A stretch of DNA of 64,000 nucleotides from an uncultured Gammaproteobacteria bacterium (GTDB taxonomy: Bacteria; Patescibacteriota; Microgenomatia; Levybacterales; GWA1-39-11), in the NCBI GenBank assembly GCA_964450885.1, contig CAYVFE010000001.1, forward strand, positions 438,572 to 502,571, given 5' to 3'. This document shows, piece by piece, positions 47,344 to 54,195 of the stretch. Both the position numbers and the translations under genes were made by a program. The notes beneath the pieces are model-generated. The model saw nothing but the letters and a program-made list of their open reading frames with translations, was not told the origin of the DNA and did no database searches. The first letter of the stretch is position 1. The number at the start of each line of letters is the position of its first letter.

Positions 47344-47363
47344 ACCAATCAAAACTATCAAAT

Positions 47364-47396
47364 TGCAGGATATTTCTTTACCAGATATATCTTGCA
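47364..47396. promoter_or_regulatory. inverted repeat TGCAGGATAT-N13-ATATCTTGCA in the divergent XRE/SHOCT promoter region (candidate operator)
   Basis: The 10-bp arms are reverse complements with one mismatch. Confidence 0.35.
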
Positions 47397-47452
47397 TTAT
47401 TCAAGAACAGGTTGTAATATTAAGATTAATTGGCATAGTATCAATTAACACT

Positions 47453-47821
47453 ATGGACGCTGAAAAGACATTATTTGAAACGAGCTTTGCGGGATTTTGG
47501 ATTAAAATATATCCAAGTAGAGTTGAGTTTAAAGCTGGAGCTGGTTCAGAAATAATTCCAATTAGTCAGATTTCCAGTATTCATACAGGAATGTTGGGAT
47601 ATAGCCAAATAACAATAGAAACAACAGGAGGCAAGAAATATAATATTCCATGTGGTAAGAAGAACGAAGTAAAACAGGCTATTTTCCAAGCACAAGCAGG
47701 AAATGGACAACAAGCAGTGCTGAGCATTGCTGACGAATTGTTAAAGTTAAAACAATTAAAAGATAGTGGAATATTAACCGAAGAGGAATTTAATAAACAA
47801 AAAGAAAAACTAATCTCCTAA
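47453..47821 (+). CDS. SHOCT-domain protein (PH-like N-terminal domain plus C-terminal SHOCT)
   Basis: The C-terminus LLKLKQLKDSGILTEEEFNKQKEKLI is a SHOCT motif. The start is taken at MDAEK; the listed ORF begins at a TTG upstream. Confidence 0.5.
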   Translation: MDAEKTLFETSFAGFWIKIYPSRVEFKAGAGSEIIPISQISSIHTGMLGYSQITIETTGGKKYNIPCGKKNEVKQAIFQAQAGNGQQAVLSIADELLKLKQLKDSGILTEEEFNKQKEKLIS

Positions 47822-47997
47822 ATTACTGCAGGGTCTTGCACTAGACCCGTAGTTAAAACTTGTCAACCCCCAAAATGGAAAAATTACATACTAATTATGA
47901 ACCTAAGTTCATAGAAATATATATATGAAATAAACTTATAGTCAGAAAACCATATGATATTCTCTACTCAACCAAATGATTGGGTGGAGAATAAAGA

Positions 47998-48034
47998 CTC
48001 CTGTTAGGGACTCCACCCAAGACAGGAGTTTTTA
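47998..48034 (+). promoter_or_regulatory. SD-sequestering hairpin plus U-run immediately upstream of the 48036 start
   Basis: The stem ctcctgt(47998-48004)/acaggag(48022-48028) is followed by ttttta and then ATG. The aggag SD sits in the 3' arm. The loop ctccaccc can pair with the upstream gggtggag (47982-47989). Confidence 0.35.
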
Positions 48035-48035
48035 T

Positions 48036-48407
48036 ATGGAAAAAGTTGGAGATATCCTATCCGTAAATGGAAAAACAGTTAACAGTAAGTATAAATCTTT
48101 AACTACAGTAAACAGTAATACTGTTAACAGTAATGTGTGGGAAGAGGTTGAGAATTTAATTCAAATTCACAATATTAAGCCAGAGGGAATAGCAAAGCAT
48201 ATAGCAGAACAGCTAAGTGATGAGAAAAGTCTTCATTATTACTCACTCCTTGTAAAAGAACATAGCTACGAGAAGCTTTTTGAAGCCATGTATTTAACCG
48301 TAGAGTCATGGAAAAATGGCAAAATTAGAACATCAAAACCAATTTACTTTATTGCTATTTTGAGACACTGGGGATTTAGAACAAATTTCAAGGAGGACAA
48401 AAGTTGA
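48036..48407 (+). CDS. hypothetical protein with repeated TVNS motif
   Basis: The ORF has an SD 7 nt upstream of its start. I recognise no family. Confidence 0.4.
   Translation: MEKVGDILSVNGKTVNSKYKSLTTVNSNTVNSNVWEEVENLIQIHNIKPEGIAKHIAEQLSDEKSLHYYSLLVKEHSYEKLFEAMYLTVESWKNGKIRTSKPIYFIAILRHWGFRTNFKEDKS
48075..48134. repeat. three copies of a 15-bp repeat ACWGTWAACAGTAAK (two in tandem), including the perfect 12-bp palindrome ACTGTTAACAGT
   Basis: The copies lie at 48075-48089, 48105-48119 and 48120-48134, inside the 5' end of the 48036 ORF. Confidence 0.5.
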
Positions 48408-48631
48408 AAAGTAGACTTGTTAACAAAAATTCTACATTTCATGCTCGTATTGATAAGGGTTGGTGGAAAATACTTTCTCAATTGCGAACTGAGACAGGAA
48501 AGGGCTTTAAAGAGCTTATAGAGGACGCTCTAATAAACACCTACTATATTGGTGATGATGGAAAACCAGAAGTATATAGCAAGCCCAAGAGTGGACAAGC
48601 AAAAATAGATTTAAATCTTACGAGGAATTAA
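48404..48631 (+). CDS. hypothetical small protein (possibly ribbon-helix-helix-like)
   Basis: The 75-aa ORF overlaps the upstream stop by 4 nt. Any family assignment is weak. Confidence 0.3.
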   Translation: MKSRLVNKNSTFHARIDKGWWKILSQLRTETGKGFKELIEDALINTYYIGDDGKPEVYSKPKSGQAKIDLNLTRN

Positions 48632-48658
48632 GTCTGGAGTAGCTTGTAGATTGAGAGT

Positions 48659-48680
48659 AGGGGCTAGTTTATCTAGCCCT
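48659..48680. terminator. hairpin between convergent genes (ggggctag-tttat-ctagccc)
   Basis: It lies between the stops at 48631 (+) and 48697 (-). There is a weak T-run on the + strand. Confidence 0.3.
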
Positions 48681-48696
48681 TACAAATGAGATCGCG

Positions 48697-49302
48697 TTAG
48701 CCTTGCCTTAAAAGACCTACAAATTTTCCCCGAATTTCAATTTCACCTGGAAAAAAAAATTTGGACTGCAATGAGGAATTTCGTGGACGAAGTTCAATCT
48801 TGTTTCCTTGATTATAAAACCTTTTAACGCTGGCAAGTTGAGCACCGCTTTTATCAAAGAATAAAGCAATTACAACATCTCCATTATCTGCATAGTTTTG
48901 TTGTCTTACTAGAATAATGTCTTCAGGAAGTATCCCATCCTCCACCATGCTTTCTCCTTGGACTTTAAGTGCAAAGTGTTGACCGGTGGGAGAAATTAGA
49001 GATTTTTGCACTTTAATTGGTTCTGGGTTTTCAATATTCTCCAATCCTCCTCCAGCTGAAATTGTTCCTATGAGAGGTATTCTTACTACCTCTTCGTAAG
49101 GATCTAGGATTCCGATGCTACGTGCATTAGTAGTTGGTAATTTCAGAAAACCCTTTCTTCGTAAAACTTGAATATGCTGATGAATCGTTGGGACAGATTT
49201 TTCAAAAGCTCGTGCAATTTCATCAAGCGTAGGACCATGCCCGCTTTTTGCTTGATAATCATTTATGAATTTTAAGATCTCCTTTTGCTTTGGTGATAGC
49301 AT
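48697..49302 (-). CDS. lexA: LexA-type repressor (winged HTH plus S24 peptidase)
   Basis: MLSPKQKEILKFINDYQAKSGHGPTLDEIARAFEKSVPTIHQHIQVLRRKGFL is a LexA DNA-binding domain. The C-terminus has GESM (the catalytic Ser) and a downstream Lys (VKRF). Confidence 0.8.
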   Translation of the reverse strand: MLSPKQKEILKFINDYQAKSGHGPTLDEIARAFEKSVPTIHQHIQVLRRKGFLKLPTTNARSIGILDPYEEVVRIPLIGTISAGGGLENIENPEPIKVQKSLISPTGQHFALKVQGESMVEDGILPEDIILVRQQNYADNGDVVIALFFDKSGAQLASVKRFYNQGNKIELRPRNSSLQSKFFFPGEIEIRGKFVGLLRQG

Positions 49303-49351
49303 GATTTTTGCTCCTTGCAATACCTAATAGTTTAAGGTATATTTTACATAA

Positions 49352-49370
49352 ATGCAACGTGCATATAAAT
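49352..49370. promoter_or_regulatory. palindrome ATGCA-ACG-TGCAT overlapping a TATAAAT -10-like box, 1 nt upstream of the 49371 ATG (candidate operator/promoter)
   Basis: It lies in the 68-bp divergent region between lexA and the downstream operon. A second palindrome, tacct-N9-aggta, lies at 49321-49339. Confidence 0.3.
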
Positions 49371-49889
49371 ATGAATATGGAATTTATAAATGGTTTCTTT
49401 AGTATCCAGTCTGCTACAAGTTTCCTTGTAGTCTCAATTCCGGTAGGGATTTTTATATATAAATTTACAATTTTCCGCATCAGAAAAGATATGCGTCTAT
49501 TTAAGAACCTCCAACGCACGATTTATCTTATGTCAACAGATTCAACTACTGTCCTTCAAAGGGAGAAAACAATGTTTCATATGAACGGGCTATACCACGT
49601 CAGTCCAGACATAGTACATCTTTCTGATCTGGGGCATTTGGAAACAGTAAAAGATTTCTCTATTTTTGTAGTAGGATACACAAGAGGATTTGGGCATTAT
49701 AAAGAAGTCATTGATAGGGCAAAAAGGAATAGTATTCCAGTAGTTGTACTTGCCGGTCCTAGAGATATTACCGACGAAGATATGGCAATTTTTAAAGAGT
49801 ATCCTTACTTTGAGATGTGTAATACATCTTCGCGTTTATTAACTACCATTTTTAGTCTTTCTGCCGTAACACCAAATGATAAAAAATGA
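49371..49889 (+). CDS. membrane-anchored protein with a C-terminal Rossmann-like domain (candidate effector/sensor)
   Basis: It has an N-terminal hydrophobic segment (FLVVSIPVGIFIYKFTIF) and a C-terminal FVVGYTRGFG...IPVVVLAGP. Its stop overlaps the next start (ATGATAAAAAATGA). Confidence 0.4.
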   Translation: MNMEFINGFFSIQSATSFLVVSIPVGIFIYKFTIFRIRKDMRLFKNLQRTIYLMSTDSTTVLQREKTMFHMNGLYHVSPDIVHLSDLGHLETVKDFSIFVVGYTRGFGHYKEVIDRAKRNSIPVVVLAGPRDITDEDMAIFKEYPYFEMCNTSSRLLTTIFSLSAVTPNDKK

Positions 49890-51192
49890 TTTTAACAGTA
49901 CGTTTAGAGTCCACGCAAAAAATTCCCTTTCTCCACTGCAAAGGGAAAGGGATTTTGTAACCGCGGTCTACGACCATATTTGTAAGGCATTAGGCGATAA
50001 TTGTATACAAATTGGCTCTTATCCCAGATTTACATCAACAACTCCGCTTCACGATTTAGATGTGCTATATATTTTGGGAGATATGAGTAGTTTTCTTGAA
50101 AACCCCAGCGAGATACTTACGCGGTTGCAAGCTACTCTCAAGGATTACTTCTTAAAAAATACTAACTACAAGGTAATAATAAGCCTGCAAACGCACTCCG
50201 TAACAGTTAGCTTCGTGGATGGAACTGGAAAAGAAGATTTTGGCATTGACGTTGTGCCTGCATTTGTAAATGGAGTAAATGAATTTGGATTGGATATGTA
50301 TGTGGTGCCGGAAATTATTAAGATAAAAAGAAGCAAGCGTCATTCATATTATTCAGAAAAAAAAGCTGAAAACAAAGCAGTCCAATGGGTAAAATCCGAT
50401 CCCAGAGGCTACATTAAAATAGCCTCTAATATCAATGAAAAGAATGGAGATTATCGTAAGACCGTTAAGTTTATAAAAAAATGGAAGCACAATTTAGCAC
50501 ACAAAAATGAACAAGTTAAATTGAAATCATTTCATATAGAGCAGATCGTTGTGGGTATATTTCAGAAAAATCCTGACGCTTCTATGTTTGATGCCGTCTT
50601 TGAATTTTTTACAAAACTCCCGCAGCACATTGAAAAACCACAGATTCCAGACAGGGCAAATGCAGACGTTTTTATAGATGCTTACCTGGCAGACTTAACG
50701 GATGAACAACGTGCACTAATACTACAAGCAAGAGACCACTTCCTAATTGGGCTTGAAGAATTTACTCCTAGTAAGTCTGTTCACGAGTTACTTTCTGCGG
50801 ATTTTTATAAAAGATTTTCCTCCACAGAGGCATACTTATTTGACAGCTATATTCCGGTTCTCACAGAACCTCAACACACATTTAAGATTAACGGCTGGGT
50901 GAGAAAGAAGCCGGGATTTAGACATGGGTGGTTAAGCCAAATTCCTTGGAAACTTGAGTATTTAAGGTATATTGATTTTTCTGTTTCCCAGGATAATACA
51001 CAGGCACATCTATACAAGTGGAAAGTTAAAAACCATAATTCTTCTCCGCAACCCCGTGGAGAGATAACAGATCATAGAACAAGTCAAAGTCCGGAATCTA
51101 CAAGATATTCAGGTGCTCATTACGTAGAGTGTTTTGCCGTCAAAAATAACGTATGTATAGCAAGACATAGGATTAATGTCCCCATTGCTTAA
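49876..51192 (+). CDS. CD-NTase/SMODS-like nucleotidyltransferase (Pol-beta superfamily)
   Basis: IGSYPRFTSTTPLHDLDVLYIL matches the GS...hD-h-D Pol-beta signature. The third acidic residue is in FGIDVVPAF. The downstream KTVKFIKKWKH resembles the conserved helix of cGAS/DncV-like enzymes. Confidence 0.5.
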   Translation: MIKNDFNSTFRVHAKNSLSPLQRERDFVTAVYDHICKALGDNCIQIGSYPRFTSTTPLHDLDVLYILGDMSSFLENPSEILTRLQATLKDYFLKNTNYKVIISLQTHSVTVSFVDGTGKEDFGIDVVPAFVNGVNEFGLDMYVVPEIIKIKRSKRHSYYSEKKAENKAVQWVKSDPRGYIKIASNINEKNGDYRKTVKFIKKWKHNLAHKNEQVKLKSFHIEQIVVGIFQKNPDASMFDAVFEFFTKLPQHIEKPQIPDRANADVFIDAYLADLTDEQRALILQARDHFLIGLEEFTPSKSVHELLSADFYKRFSSTEAYLFDSYIPVLTEPQHTFKINGWVRKKPGFRHGWLSQIPWKLEYLRYIDFSVSQDNTQAHLYKWKVKNHNSSPQPRGEITDHRTSQSPESTRYSGAHYVECFAVKNNVCIARHRINVPIA

Positions 51193-51472
51193 GGCTTTAT
51201 GGATATAAAAGAAGCAAAGAAAATTTTAGGTAGTGAAGCAGATGGAATTTCTAATGAACAACTAGAGAAAGAAATTGATACAGCAAACTTGCTCAAAAAT
51301 ATATTTTTCAGTCTTCAAAAAAAGGCAAATAAATAACCCATAGTAGAACTGCTAGGCACAAGACAATTTTTGTTGTCATCTATTAGCCTCAAATCCATGT
51401 CGTAATATCAACCTTGTGCGACATAACGACACTTTTCTATCAAATTTTTTCTCCAAGTAGTAAAATTGAAAT

Positions 51473-51865
51473 ATGATAATTGTTGTTGGAGCATTAATAG
51501 TTCAGGGCGGTAAGTTTTTGTTAGCAGAGCGGTCCCATGGAGAGTTAAAAGGGAAATGGGAATTTCCCGGGGGGAAGCTTGAGAAAGGCGAGACAGAGGA
51601 AGAAGCTCTCGTAAGAGAGATTGAGGAGGAGTTAGGTGTTCAAGTCGTTATTGAAGAAAAAATCAAAGTCTTTACGCATAAGTATAGCTTCGGCGACATA
51701 CACTTAACATTGCTTAGGTGTAATTTATCTGATGACGTACAACACATTGGTTTACGTGGAAGCCATGAAAAATTTGACTGGGTAGATTATAATACCAGAG
51801 ACATCAATTTTGCCCCTCTTGATAGGAAAATCTTTACATACTTAAAAAAACATTATGTTATCTGA
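51473..51865 (+). CDS. NUDIX hydrolase (MutT-like)
   Basis: It has the Nudix box GGKLEKGETEEEALVREIEEELGV. Confidence 0.8.
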   Translation: MIIVVGALIVQGGKFLLAERSHGELKGKWEFPGGKLEKGETEEEALVREIEEELGVQVVIEEKIKVFTHKYSFGDIHLTLLRCNLSDDVQHIGLRGSHEKFDWVDYNTRDINFAPLDRKIFTYLKKHYVI

Positions 51866-52865
51866 ACTAATTGTCAAATTTGCAACAAATTACTTAGCGG
51901 CAACATCAACACCGTTTGCTGGAAATCGTGAAGCAGACGTTATTCGTTATGAACTCCCCGAATTGATAAGAAAGCTTGCTGCAATACCACTAAATTACAA
52001 AGTGTATGGCTCCGTTGGTCAAGGGCAATGGGCAGAAGTTCCTTGGTTTGCAATTCTTGACAAAGATATTACAACATCAACACAAAAAGGATATTATGTT
52101 GTTTTTCTATTTTCTGCGGATATGAAATACGTATATCCTTCCCTTGGTGTTGGTTGGCAACAGTTTGAAGAAGAGTATGGGGTCCGGGAAGGAAGGATTG
52201 CAATAGAGCAAGTTGTTAGGGAATTACAAAGGATTTTGAGGTCGCCCCTTGATGACTTTTCTTTTGCAAAAAGGGACCTAAAGGCAACTTCAATTTTGGG
52301 AAAAGGATATGAGAGCGGAGGGGTATGCCATAAAGTTTATGAAATAGAAAAAATGCCTTCAGACGAGGTGATTGTAAATGATGTTAGAAATCTTATGGGA
52401 GTGTATCGCGAACTGAAAGGATTAGTGGGGAAAAATGTTTTAAATCTTGAAATTCCTGAGGAGCAAATTGCAGACGAAGAATTTAACAGAAAGGTTATTG
52501 AGGAAAGTGAAGATGTAGCCTCTCCAGAGGTAGCAAAAGAAAAAATCAAAGCTCTAACAAAAATAATTGAAACAGCACCGGCTCAGGAGAGAACAAAGAT
52601 GGCGCGGTATGTGGCAAGAAATAGGAAATTTGCAGAATTAGTGAAGCAGGCAGCTAATTATACTTGCCAGATTTGCGGAATGCCTCCATTCAAAACCAAA
52701 TCAGGAGAACTATATGCAGAAGCACATCATACTTTAGAGCTAGCAACTCACAGAATAGACCACCCTGATATAATGATATGTGTATGCGCTCAGTGTCATC
52801 GTGTTATTACATATGGTTCCGAAGCAGAAATAAGCAAGCGAGAAGATATGGGTAGACAAAATTAA
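51855..52865 (+). CDS. HNH endonuclease with an N-terminal MrcB-N (DUF3578)-like DNA-binding domain, a type IV restriction-like enzyme
   Basis: The N-terminal KVYGSVGQGQWAEVPWFAILDK...GYYVVFLFSADMKYVYPS resembles the MrcB/McrB N-domain. The C-terminus CQICGMPP...AHHTLELATHRIDHPDIMICVCAQCH is an HNH motif. It overlaps the Nudix gene by 11 nt. Confidence 0.5.
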   Translation: MLSELIVKFATNYLAATSTPFAGNREADVIRYELPELIRKLAAIPLNYKVYGSVGQGQWAEVPWFAILDKDITTSTQKGYYVVFLFSADMKYVYPSLGVGWQQFEEEYGVREGRIAIEQVVRELQRILRSPLDDFSFAKRDLKATSILGKGYESGGVCHKVYEIEKMPSDEVIVNDVRNLMGVYRELKGLVGKNVLNLEIPEEQIADEEFNRKVIEESEDVASPEVAKEKIKALTKIIETAPAQERTKMARYVARNRKFAELVKQAANYTCQICGMPPFKTKSGELYAEAHHTLELATHRIDHPDIMICVCAQCHRVITYGSEAEISKREDMGRQN

Positions 52866-52869
52866 GGTT

Positions 52870-53145
52870 ATGGATAAGACATTAATAACAATTATTATAA
52901 TCGGGGCACCAACCCTATTAATTGCAATTTGTTGGGTTTCGTTGATGATTACAATGAGAAAAACAACGGGTGAATTAAAGCTTTTTCTTAGTCCTGACAA
53001 CTTAGTTAAGGTATTCGCAATATATTTAGTTTTAATCGGCACAATTTTATTTGGGCTACTTGGGATAATTAACGGTGAAGCTATAGGAGTTATTTTTAGT
53101 GGTGTGATTGGGTATACAGTTGGAACGAAGTTTAATAAGAATTAA
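52870..53145 (+). CDS. small two-TM membrane protein
   Basis: It is 91 aa with two hydrophobic helices. Confidence 0.35.
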   Translation: MDKTLITIIIIGAPTLLIAICWVSLMITMRKTTGELKLFLSPDNLVKVFAIYLVLIGTILFGLLGIINGEAIGVIFSGVIGYTVGTKFNKN

Positions 53146-53417
53146 TAAATTGCTAAGCAGTTTATAAGGTCAAATTTTTGTTTGTGAGTTAAAGTCTTCA
53201 ATTCCTTTTCTCTCTGCATAGCAAAGCTTCTTGTTTGATAGGGTTCAATATGAACAATTTTTACTGGGCGTCTGTATTTTGTCCATTTGGCTCCTGGATA
53301 TTTCCCAAGTCCGTTATGTTCTTTTTCTCTTTCTTCAATGTTGTTGGTTTGTCCAGTATAATATGTTCCATCCCCACATTCTGCAATATAAACATAATAA
53401 ACCGGTGGTTTTAACAT
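53142..53417 (-). CDS. GIY-YIG nuclease family protein (UPF0213/YhbQ-like)
   Basis: VYYVYIAECGDGTYYTGQTNNIEEREKEHN has the GIY-YIG core with the conserved Arg, Glu and Asn. Confidence 0.7.
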   Translation of the reverse strand: MLKPPVYYVYIAECGDGTYYTGQTNNIEEREKEHNGLGKYPGAKWTKYRRPVKIVHIEPYQTRSFAMQREKELKTLTHKQKFDLINCLAIY

Positions 53418-53469
53418 TCTTAAATTATAGCAAGAACAGATGAAGTAAGGGGTGGTATAATACCGAGAT

Positions 53470-53652
53470 ATGACTAAACTAATTCGTCAAAAAAGAGGAG
53501 ATACTTTGGTAAAGACAATTGAAAAAAAATATAAGGTTGATTTAGGCTACCGAGCTGATGCAAAGTTATCAACCGTTTTAAAAAAAACAGGGGCTCCTTC
53601 TCTATCAAAGCTAGTTAAGCTTGCAGATACGACTAGGAAAAAAACCAAGTAA
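53470..53652 (+). CDS. hypothetical small basic protein
   Basis: It is a 60-aa ORF and may not be coding. Confidence 0.2.
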   Translation: MTKLIRQKRGDTLVKTIEKKYKVDLGYRADAKLSTVLKKTGAPSLSKLVKLADTTRKKTK

Positions 53653-53658
53653 TATCCG

Positions 53659-54195
53659 ATGCAGCCGACTGACCTATTATTTATATCCGATATCCCATTA
53701 AGGAAAAAAATAATTAACGCCATTGATACGATTTCCGGTTTATACCTTATTGAGAAAGATACGAATTATCCTCGTGAATTATCAAAAGAAATAAGAAGAA
53801 CTATCGTTTTATATGCTGCCTCAATAATAGAAGCTTCTCTTTTGTTTTTGTATAAAAGGAAAGCATCACCAATTTTGAAAACTGAATATGCAGACGTTCA
53901 TACATTGCCTTTGTCTTTGCAAAATGGCTCACAAAATAAATTAGTTATTGCAAGACAGGTACAAAGTCCTAGAGACGAAAGAGAGTTGATGTTGGATGTT
54001 TTGTTAAAATTCTATACCTCTAAAGAAAAAATCATACCTAAAAGCTTAGCTGAAAAAATAATAAAAGCCAAAGATATTAGAAATACTTTTCATCTTTCTA
54101 AATCTAGGTCTGGTCTTGTAGTTAGTGCTAAAGTAATGCAATTATCAACGGATGCTGTTTATGAAACAATTGTTATCGTTAAGAACAGTTTGTAA
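53659..54195 (+). CDS. hypothetical protein
   Basis: It is a 178-aa ORF at the right end of the island. I recognise no family. Confidence 0.35.
   Translation: MQPTDLLFISDIPLRKKIINAIDTISGLYLIEKDTNYPRELSKEIRRTIVLYAASIIEASLLFLYKRKASPILKTEYADVHTLPLSLQNGSQNKLVIARQVQSPRDERELMLDVLLKFYTSKEKIIPKSLAEKIIKAKDIRNTFHLSKSRSGLVVSAKVMQLSTDAVYETIVIVKNSL

Follow-up and report, generated by a model that had tools for sequence, protein, structure and literature searches.

Why should the gene for a small nucleotide pyrophosphatase run into the start of a gene for a restriction-like nuclease? Type IV restriction enzymes tend to be regarded as proteins that act alone, with a host that lacks the modification as their sole safeguard. 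The question is raised by a locus on contig CAYVFE010000001.1 of assembly GCA_964450885.1, within an analysed stretch of 64,000 nucleotides (nt; positions 438,572 to 502,571, hereafter the window), where a Nudix hydrolase gene overlaps the gene for a single-chain protein with an MrcB_N and an HNH domain. The answer that we favour, with a probability of roughly 0.55, is that the two genes encode a type IV restriction enzyme and its own modified-dCTP pyrophosphatase, the main role of which would be self-protection. The genes are arranged as follows (window coordinates; lengths in amino acids, aa):

51473..51865, + strand: Nudix hydrolase gene (130 aa), a MutT/NudG-like (d)NTP (deoxynucleoside or nucleoside triphosphate) pyrophosphohydrolase of the PADLOC PDC-S07 family
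51855..52865, + strand: 336-aa single-chain MrcB_N-HNH gene, predicted to encode a modification-dependent (type IV) restriction endonuclease
51855..51865, + strand: 11 nt shared by the end of the Nudix gene and the beginning of the nuclease gene, ATGTTATCTGA, suggestive of translational coupling

A first-pass annotation of this DNA had described a Nudix open reading frame (ORF) overlapping the start of a 336-aa ORF by 11 nt, and its coordinates proved exact; the motif strings that it quoted (the Nudix box, KVYGSVGQGQWAEVPWFAILDK...GYYVVFLFSAD, and CQICG...AHH...CVCAQCH) are likewise all present. Its core reading, that a type IV-like nuclease of MrcB-N/HNH build is coupled to a nucleotide pyrophosphatase, is supported by the evidence given here, and neither outcome that it had named as refuting (an N-domain unlike MrcB-N, or an adjacency confined to this genome) was observed. 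Judged by similarity, the matches to Pfam and to EcoKMcrA exclude both genes from being chance ORFs, and the overlap makes translational coupling of the Nudix and nuclease genes probable.

The nuclease protein divides into three parts:

51882..52418, + strand: MrcB_N (DUF3578) modified-base reader domain, aa 10-188 (Pfam, 7.9e-50)
52419..52583, + strand: helical linker from reader to nuclease, aa 189-243 (AlphaFold (AF2) secondary structure, Pfam)
52584..52826, + strand: McrA-type HNH (beta-beta-alpha-Me) nuclease domain, aa 244-324 (match to 6GHC)

An N-terminus resembling that of McrB had been proposed from the letters alone, and both the MrcB_N profile match (7.9e-50) and the fold of the domain bear this out. 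The AF2 model of the nuclease, built from the family alignment, has a pLDDT (predicted local distance difference test) score of 88.5, and in Foldseek its N-domain matches the EcoKMcrB N-domain structures 3SSC, 6GCD and 6GCE with a probability of 1.00 and template modelling scores of 0.54-0.60 on the target, while its C-domain matches McrA, ScoMcrA and TagI. The linker (aa 189-243) has no family match in the Pfam scan, and the model places helices within aa 170-254. The C-terminal HNH nuclease, also named in the first-pass annotation, is of the EcoKMcrA type: it matches EcoKMcrA (6GHC) at 2.5e-6 as a single sequence and at 1.4e-16 with a family profile made from 37 nuclease family members, and further matches were obtained to TagI (6GHS, 1e-8), to ScoMcrA (5ZMM, 1.9e-8) and to the PADLOC mREase_IV model (5.3e-7).

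In EcoKMcrB, W49, Y64 and L68 line the pocket that receives the flipped methylcytosine, and the N-domain takes 5-methylcytosine (m5C), 5-hydroxymethylcytosine (hm5C) and N4-methylcytosine (m4C) (PMC3874153). Profile alignment to 3SSC equates these three residues with W64, Y81 and L85 of the window protein, of which W64 is invariant in the nuclease family and Y81 and L85 are at least 90% conserved. The HNH core residues C271/C274, H292, D302, C311/C314 and H315 are invariant across the family, unlike the central Asn (see below), and C271/C274 with C311/C314 form the predicted HNH zinc site. No methyltransferase was detected by the Pfam scan among the neighbours at 47363-54195, and none was called beside the pair in the related loci L022-L025. 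The nuclease family comprises 146 representatives at E <= 1e-30 among 1.84 billion searched and, judged from the relatives of the window protein, is common in the candidate phyla radiation (CPR)/Patescibacteria.

The arrangement recurs across this family. The closest nuclease homologues, at 48-75% identity, have a Nudix gene immediately upstream, with the same 11-nt overlap in four loci (L022, L025, L024 and P0004) and one of 4 nt in two others (L023, L027); in L028 the upstream Nudix gene (1721-2113) is frameshifted in its N-terminal half, so that only residues 73-127 are in frame (85% identical to L027), and here either the partner is decaying or the assembly is at fault. A survey for this adjacency in other genomes had been suggested in the first-pass annotation, and the pair is kept in seven other loci, each set among different genes, such as those for Obg and FKBP, for a protein kinase with a zeta toxin, for a staphylococcal-type nuclease or for an AAA_14 ATPase. 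The identities of the Nudix proteins rise and fall with those of the nucleases (r = 0.91 for seven pairs and 21 non-independent pairwise comparisons), and all intact partners keep the catalytic Nudix box. By these sequence comparisons the Nudix-nuclease pair is one mobile unit. A search of 2.9 million viral contigs returned two distant matches only, at 29% identity, and a phage origin seems unlikely; no tRNA gene marking an integration site lies within the window.

This mobility bears on one alternative, that the adjacency is meaningless, the Nudix protein being a housekeeping MutT (8-oxo-dGTPase) beside which a nuclease has landed. MutT-type models do score as well on it as NudG-type models, and Nudix relatives of ~40% identity found by protein search (P0065, P0098) stand in housekeeping or unrelated contexts, among them sanitation operons with Ham1, dCMP deaminase and uracil-DNA glycosylase. 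We nevertheless consider this explanation very improbable: the pair travels together across unrelated neighbourhoods, phyla and plasmids, its overlap is conserved, the two proteins co-diverge, and their domains are fused in one lineage. Because the contexts of P0065 and P0098 differ from those of the pair, linkage to a nuclease would be a trait of particular Nudix lineages and not of all MutT-like proteins. Two genes upstream of the small Nudix protein P0098, L083 (4911-5495) also encodes a 194-aa protein with a RelB antitoxin domain and a NUDIX_4 domain.

What, then, might the Nudix protein hydrolyse? It matches the Pfam families NUDIX (4.9e-18) and NUDIX_4 (2.5e-16), and its catalytic motif is complete:

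51572..51640, + strand: Nudix box, aa 34-56, GKLEKGETEEEALVREIEEELGV (from the sequence), all catalytic positions intact

The box has the canonical form GX5EX7REUXEEXGU (G34, E40, R48, E49, E52, E53, G55), and at E40, R48, E49, E52 and E53 the partner Nudix proteins agree completely or in at least 90% of cases. The window protein matches PADLOC PDC-S07 at 1.2e-34, and its nuclease-partner relatives do so at up to 2.5e-47. Its best solved match is 5X1X (2.3e-23, 38% identity), for which we found no paper in the literature; 5X1X is identical over 130 residues to the Nudix protein linked to SauUSI in S. aureus, where the Nudix stop codon lies 2 nt ahead of SauUSI (7CLG, E = 0). The next solved relative of 5X1X is 3GWY (B. 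fragilis Q5LBB1, 2.2e-22), which has been assayed on 74 Nudix substrates and hydrolyses 5-Me-dCTP, 5-hydroxymethyl-dCTP and 5-Me-CTP at 4.8e6, 4.4e6 and 6.7e6 M-1 s-1, respectively, canonical NTPs being much poorer substrates (PMC5158307). A preference for 5-methyl-dCTP is likewise known for NudG of E. coli.

The same Nudix family adjoins other type IV enzymes. To gauge how general the partnership is, we sampled six plasmid-borne members of the Nudix family, drawn from a tblastn search with 114 matching records; five of the six adjoin a nuclease and the sixth is an HNH-Nudix fusion:

L091, P. megaterium: Nudix gene overlapping an HNH endonuclease gene by 4 nt
L092, P. megaterium pBM700: Nudix gene divergent from an HNH_2 protein gene
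L096, Sphingomonas: Nudix gene 20 nt ahead of an HNH_2 protein gene
L094 (3474-7357), Bacillus cereus plasmid NZ_CP085502.1: Nudix gene directly upstream of an 876-aa McrB-like AAA_5 ATPase and McrC
L095, S. aureus: Nudix gene ahead of SauUSI
L093 (2415-3878), Paenibacillus polymyxa pSb31l: 487-aa fusion of an N-terminal 270 aa with no domain assignment, an EcoKMcrA-type HNH and a C-terminal Nudix domain

From the Bacillus cereus arrangement it follows that the Nudix partnership reaches classical McrBC, and the HNH of the Paenibacillus fusion matches 6GHC at 9.8e-23. In five gut-metagenome loci (L066, L068, L070, L071, L073), a PDC-S07 Nudix gene (3.8e-45) lies beside a VcaM4I-like EVE-HNH gene whose product is a full-length homologue of VcaM4I (6YEX, 1.1e-19). 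The characterised partners, SauUSI (PMC3141236) and EVE-HNH enzymes, target 5-methylcytosine (5mC) and 5-hydroxymethylcytosine (5hmC).

A second pyrophosphatase fold occupies the same position in sister clades of the nuclease. Near nuclease homologues of ~40% identity, a clade with the HNH motif AEADH instead of AEAHH, no Nudix gene was found within 6 kb; a MazG-like gene (PF12643) overlaps the nuclease start by 4 nt or abuts it in six loci (L031, L033, L034, L005, L038, L039). The nearest solved relatives of its product are DCTPP1/RS21-C6 (6e-21), an all-alpha MazG-like dCTP pyrophosphatase, and the DCTPP1 residues W47, E63, E66, W73, E95 and D98, pocket Trp residues among them, are kept. DCTPP1 prefers 5-methyl- and 5-halo-dCTP, controls cellular 5-methyl-dCTP and limits its incorporation into DNA (PMC4491611; PMC13291643). 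Because a DCTPP1-like MazG enzyme takes the Nudix slot in these clades, a dCTP-type pyrophosphatase would be the activity that the nuclease needs. The nuclease stop is in turn overlapped by a Schlafen-group-3/DUF2075 helicase gene in four of the six MazG loci (L033, L005, L038, L039), and a helicase gene also follows the nuclease in L036, where the upstream flank ends at the contig edge.

The resulting three-gene operon of DCTPP1-like MazG, MrcB_N-HNH and Schlafen-group-3/DUF2075 helicase, found in CPR relatives (L039 503-3717; also L033, L005 and L038), looks like an undescribed NTP-dependent type IV system; the sister-clade helicase has weak matches to the PADLOC PDC-S41, Nhi and AbiO models. 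Since neither a MazG-like nor a helicase homologue occurs among the window ORFs, the window holds a reduced two-gene form. A four-gene cassette is carried by the Priestia aryabhattai plasmid NZ_CP083270.1 (L089 3458-7364: mutT, DUF3578-HNH, MazG-like, DUF2075 helicase), with the gene order of the other cassettes and a nuclease only 32% identical to that of the window. Beside the L089 cassette lie genes for a further restriction endonuclease, for an ABC-three-component protein and for an N6 methylase.

The gene overlap and the fusion also lend themselves to another explanation, in which the Nudix protein controls the nuclease through a physical complex, either inhibiting it in the manner of an antitoxin or activating it on sensing a nucleotide. 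Conserved overlap suggests stoichiometric co-expression, an HNH-Nudix fusion exists, and, according to the EVE-HNH literature, toxicity prevented expression in E. coli of an active HNH domain cut out of a related enzyme. Control of this kind is improbable, however, given that the Nudix box is intact in every intact partner, that a MazG/DCTPP1-like fold in the same slot argues for shared catalysis and not for a specific interface, that the nuclease occurs naturally without any partner, and that the same Nudix family joins nucleases as unrelated as the phospholipase D (PLD)-helicase SauUSI, McrBC and EVE-HNH.

What the sequences show is which domains are present, that their coupling is conserved and that the Nudix family is linked to type IV enzymes; from there we infer what the window Nudix hydrolyses, which bases the reader recognises and what the pair does for the cell, as follows. 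The EcoKMcrB-N-type domain would flip out and recognise a 5-substituted cytosine, of the 5mC/5hmC type, in invading DNA, and the C-terminal McrA-type HNH would cut the modified DNA with no requirement for an NTP. The co-translated Nudix protein would convert 5-methyl-dCTP and 5-hydroxymethyl-dCTP to monophosphates, these modified dNTPs arising through salvage of methylated or restricted DNA or through synthesis by an infecting phage. Cleaning of the pool would keep modified cytosine off the host chromosome, so that the nuclease attacks foreign DNA alone, and it would also deprive phages of the modified dCTP from which some of them make their genomes. CPR bacteria are salvage-dependent. We favour self-protection as the main role because it fits the logic of DCTPP1, the tight coupling, the fusion and the abundance of the family in these salvage-dependent organisms. 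Hydrolysis of a modified dNTP was one of three roles that the first-pass annotation had offered for the Nudix protein, beside acting on a signalling nucleotide or on the product of an upstream nucleotidyltransferase, and it is favoured among them on account of the DCTPP1-like MazG slot and the activity of 3GWY.

Several observations weigh against this reading. Sequence evidence on the substrate of the window Nudix is ambiguous: its match to 3GWY (1.5e-10) is no better than that to E. coli MutT (3.4e-10), and it falls under the NCBIfam cut-offs both for NudG (PRK10546, 68.5 vs 156) and for MutT (TIGR00586, 64.2 vs 97.9), so that, on these scores, it is related to MutT and NudG and an orthologue of neither, and its substrate has to be deduced indirectly. 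In the nuclease, the central Asn of the H-N-H motif is replaced by Ile (I306, in PDIMIC), a change that the first-pass annotation did not mention; the five closest relatives have Ile or Val at this position, the remaining family has Asn, and because of the replacement the nuclease activity could be reduced or altered. The partner is also missing from some loci: the P0006/L085 nuclease (59% identity) has no Nudix gene, the P0007/L026 nuclease (49%) has none and has a serine recombinase inserted upstream, and about one third of nuclease family loci carry neither Nudix nor MazG. Since close relatives and this third of loci lack a partner, the Nudix protein is not an obligatory immunity factor. 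Finally, an upstream Nudix gene and a MazG-like gene occur together in L023, L024, L028, the P0004 locus and the Priestia locus L089 (the helicase is also present in L023, L024 and the P0004 locus and not in L028), and under a simple one-substrate model two such enzymes look redundant.

Genomics cannot, moreover, separate self-protection from depletion of the phage nucleotide pool. The Nudix protein could instead be a second offensive arm that destroys 5hm-dCTP and 5m-dCTP and thereby blocks phage genomes that escape cleavage, host protection being incidental. Nucleotide-depleting defences such as dCTP deaminase and dGTPase are an established precedent. A nuclease that tolerates the loss of its partner is better suited to an additive arm than to an immunity factor; the 3GWY relative hydrolyses 5-hydroxymethyl-dCTP near the diffusion limit, and PDC-S07, which is found in defence islands, is a stand-alone defence candidate in PADLOC. 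Tight translational coupling and domain fusion, on the other hand, would be expected of a safety partner more than of an independent effector, no regulation triggered by infection is apparent, and a small constitutive Nudix protein may not outpace the high-flux nucleotide synthesis of a phage. On balance an offensive arm seems rather unlikely to us, and it is kept as the main rival to self-protection because the partner is dispensable and because of the stand-alone flag in PADLOC.

Beyond the window, self-protection invites a broader and more tentative proposal, to which we give somewhat less than even odds: that a dedicated modified-dNTP pyrophosphatase is a general design principle of modification-dependent restriction. 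PDC-S07 Nudix and DCTPP1-like MazG enzymes, whose folds are unrelated, would have been recruited repeatedly to SauUSI, McrBC, EVE-HNH and MrcB_N-HNH nucleases, as recycled or scavenged modified DNA would otherwise write the forbidden mark and turn the nuclease on its owner. If so, these enzymes would be a bacterial counterpart to DCTPP1 guarding the epigenome, and the PADLOC single-gene candidates PDC-S07 and a PDC-S41-like helicase would be parts of one multi-gene type IV system. Policing of the nucleotide pool would join the self/non-self logic of restriction, perhaps mattering most in the salvage-dependent CPR/Patescibacteria, and phages with 5mC or 5hmC genomes would be attacked on two fronts. 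A common pyrophosphatase would also give a testable function to the SauUSI gene linkage noticed in 2011; SauUSI is a major barrier to transformation of S. aureus, and its Nudix partner may therefore affect genetic tractability. Annotators could merge PDC-S07 with adjoining type IV genes, and the Priestia plasmids and S. aureus offer cultured, tractable examples.

How far are these components known? The window nuclease resembles EcoKMcrA, TagI and ScoMcrA in its type of HNH and in its plan (one chain that starts with the reader, ends with the nuclease and lacks an NTPase), but its reader is McrB-N/DUF3578 and not NEco, SRA or SBD, and it differs further in the HNH Asn to Ile replacement and the coupled pyrophosphatase. 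With the N-domain of EcoKMcrB the reader has the Pfam family, the fold and the pocket residues in common, whereas it is fused straight to a nuclease and not to a McrC-partnered AAA+ GTPase, and the position of EcoKMcrB Y41, the residue that takes up the space vacated by the flipped base, varies in the window family between Gln and other residues. VcaM4I and TspA15I likewise join a reader to a McrA-like HNH, and gut-metagenome homologues adjoin PDC-S07 Nudix genes; their reader, however, is EVE/PUA, and the Nudix gene there is convergent instead of overlapping upstream. The published EVE-HNH work on VcaM4I and TspA15I makes no mention of Nudix.

SauUSI is the closest precedent for the partnership, being a type IV, 5mC/5hmC-dependent enzyme with a conserved adjoining gene of the window Nudix family (SAUSA300_2432), but it consists of a PLD nuclease, a helicase and a DUF3427 reader and needs ATP. 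Xu et al. (2011) noticed the MutT/Nudix gene linked to SauUSI, guessed that it removes pyrophosphate after ATP hydrolysis and left its function open (PMC3141236); a figure legend in Bell et al. (2020) repeats the observation. As the window nuclease has no NTPase, the pyrophosphate guess cannot apply to it. On the side of the pyrophosphatase, 3GWY and NudG/Orf135 belong to the same small MutT/NudG-like class, and their measured preference for 5-Me-dCTP and 5-hydroxymethyl-dCTP is the activity proposed here, although the published accounts treat them as sanitisers that guard the pool against mutagenic nucleotides in general and draw no connection with restriction. DCTPP1 embodies the logic that we propose for the window Nudix, in that it limits 5-methyl-dCTP incorporation, but its fold differs and in eukaryotes it serves the fidelity of epigenetic marks and does not shield DNA from a nuclease. 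PADLOC treats PDC-S07 as a single-gene candidate of unknown function, whereas here it appears as an accessory of type IV nucleases.

The components are thus of known kinds, and the specific pair and its explanation are new to the literature searched. The first-pass annotation had not recognised the pairing as described. This stands for the MrcB_N-HNH/Nudix pair, for which neither a description nor a mechanistic explanation was found in that literature, and does not stand for Nudix/type IV linkage in general, which was known from SauUSI and PDC-S07. In the literature searched we likewise found nothing on a DCTPP1-like MazG and a helicase having been recruited in parallel, on the HNH-Nudix fusion or on a link to the 5-Me-/5-hydroxymethyl-dCTP activity measured for a family member; a 2025 review of restriction-modification mentions none of Nudix, MutT and MazG. 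A precedent for HNH beside MazG exists in the unannotated 'Group 23' HNH proteins, which lie beside MazG genes.

The remaining question is whether the pair works with its neighbours in the window:

49308-49889, + strand: one-transmembrane (TM) effector (PADLOC 1TM Effector / C3a59)
49876-51192, + strand: CD-NTase (cGAS/DncV-like nucleotidyltransferase), 438 aa, with a C-terminal AGS-C sensor domain (PADLOC Cyclase, 8.5e-175; Pfam AGS_C)
48697-49320, - strand: LexA-like protein (LexA_DNA_bind and Peptidase_S24), divergent, its 5' end overlapping the effector ORF
51199-51336, + strand: 45-aa ORF, MDIKEAKKILGSEADGISNEQLEKEIDTANLLKNIFFSLQKKANK, covering half of the gap between CD-NTase and Nudix genes
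52870-53145, + strand: 91-aa predicted membrane ORF, starting 5 nt past the nuclease stop
53142-53417, - strand: small GIY-YIG protein, beside the nuclease gene

By its profile matches, the effector with its overlapping CD-NTase is a type I cyclic-oligonucleotide-based anti-phage signalling system (CBASS; 49308-51192, + strand). The CD-NTase stop at 51192 and the Nudix start are separated by a 280-nt gap on the same strand, in agreement with the ~280 bp of the first-pass annotation, which had suggested that the Nudix protein might tune the nucleotidyltransferase product. A CBASS membership of this kind, in which the Nudix protein degrades or tunes the cyclic-oligonucleotide signal, can appeal to a genuine TM effector and CD-NTase upstream, to the shared strand and short distance, and to the lack of a predicted terminator between them. 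A scan of 49000-53600 for promoter and terminator consensus sequences gave counts no higher than in shuffled sequence and none between the CD-NTase and Nudix genes, and because the counts match those of shuffled sequence, co-transcription with the CBASS is neither shown nor excluded. Comparative context is more telling: among 90 related loci, which include seven other Nudix-nuclease pairs, homologues of the CD-NTase or TM effector were matched only in the window itself. The Nudix gene, moreover, overlaps the nuclease gene rather than the CBASS genes, and its relatives are (d)NTP pyrophosphohydrolases. The contexts of the related loci thus largely refute a CBASS link, the chance of which we put close to negligible, and the suggested tuning is not supported; as far as comparative sequence goes, the CBASS is independent of the Nudix-nuclease pair.

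The LexA-like protein may be the LexA of the host, or it may regulate the island in response to damage. The 91-aa membrane ORF was considered as a component of the system; it has no homologue in any related locus and is probably not part of it.

Some related loci show further neighbours. A staphylococcal-type (thermo)nuclease and/or an Excalibur protein is encoded just upstream of the Nudix gene in L024 (6947-7612), L093 (1321-2388) and the P0004 locus (gene 50-718); it is speculative, but such a scavenging nuclease would fit salvaged DNA as a source of modified nucleotides. In L088 (the P0011 locus, 2-1011), a MutH-like endonuclease gene and an ORF for a candidate DNA methyltransferase fragment (...VLDPFAGSSTTG...) precede the nuclease gene and an AIPR (abortive-infection) gene follows it, which is a different partner set for the same nuclease family. 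The GIY-YIG protein of the window has a homologue (3.6e-16) in L085 (5410-5712), just upstream of the Nudix-less nuclease gene, and its presence at both loci may reflect shared insertion-site ancestry or a recurrent neighbour. Further downstream of it in the window lie housekeeping genes, including a candidate 631-aa translational-GTPase-like ORF.

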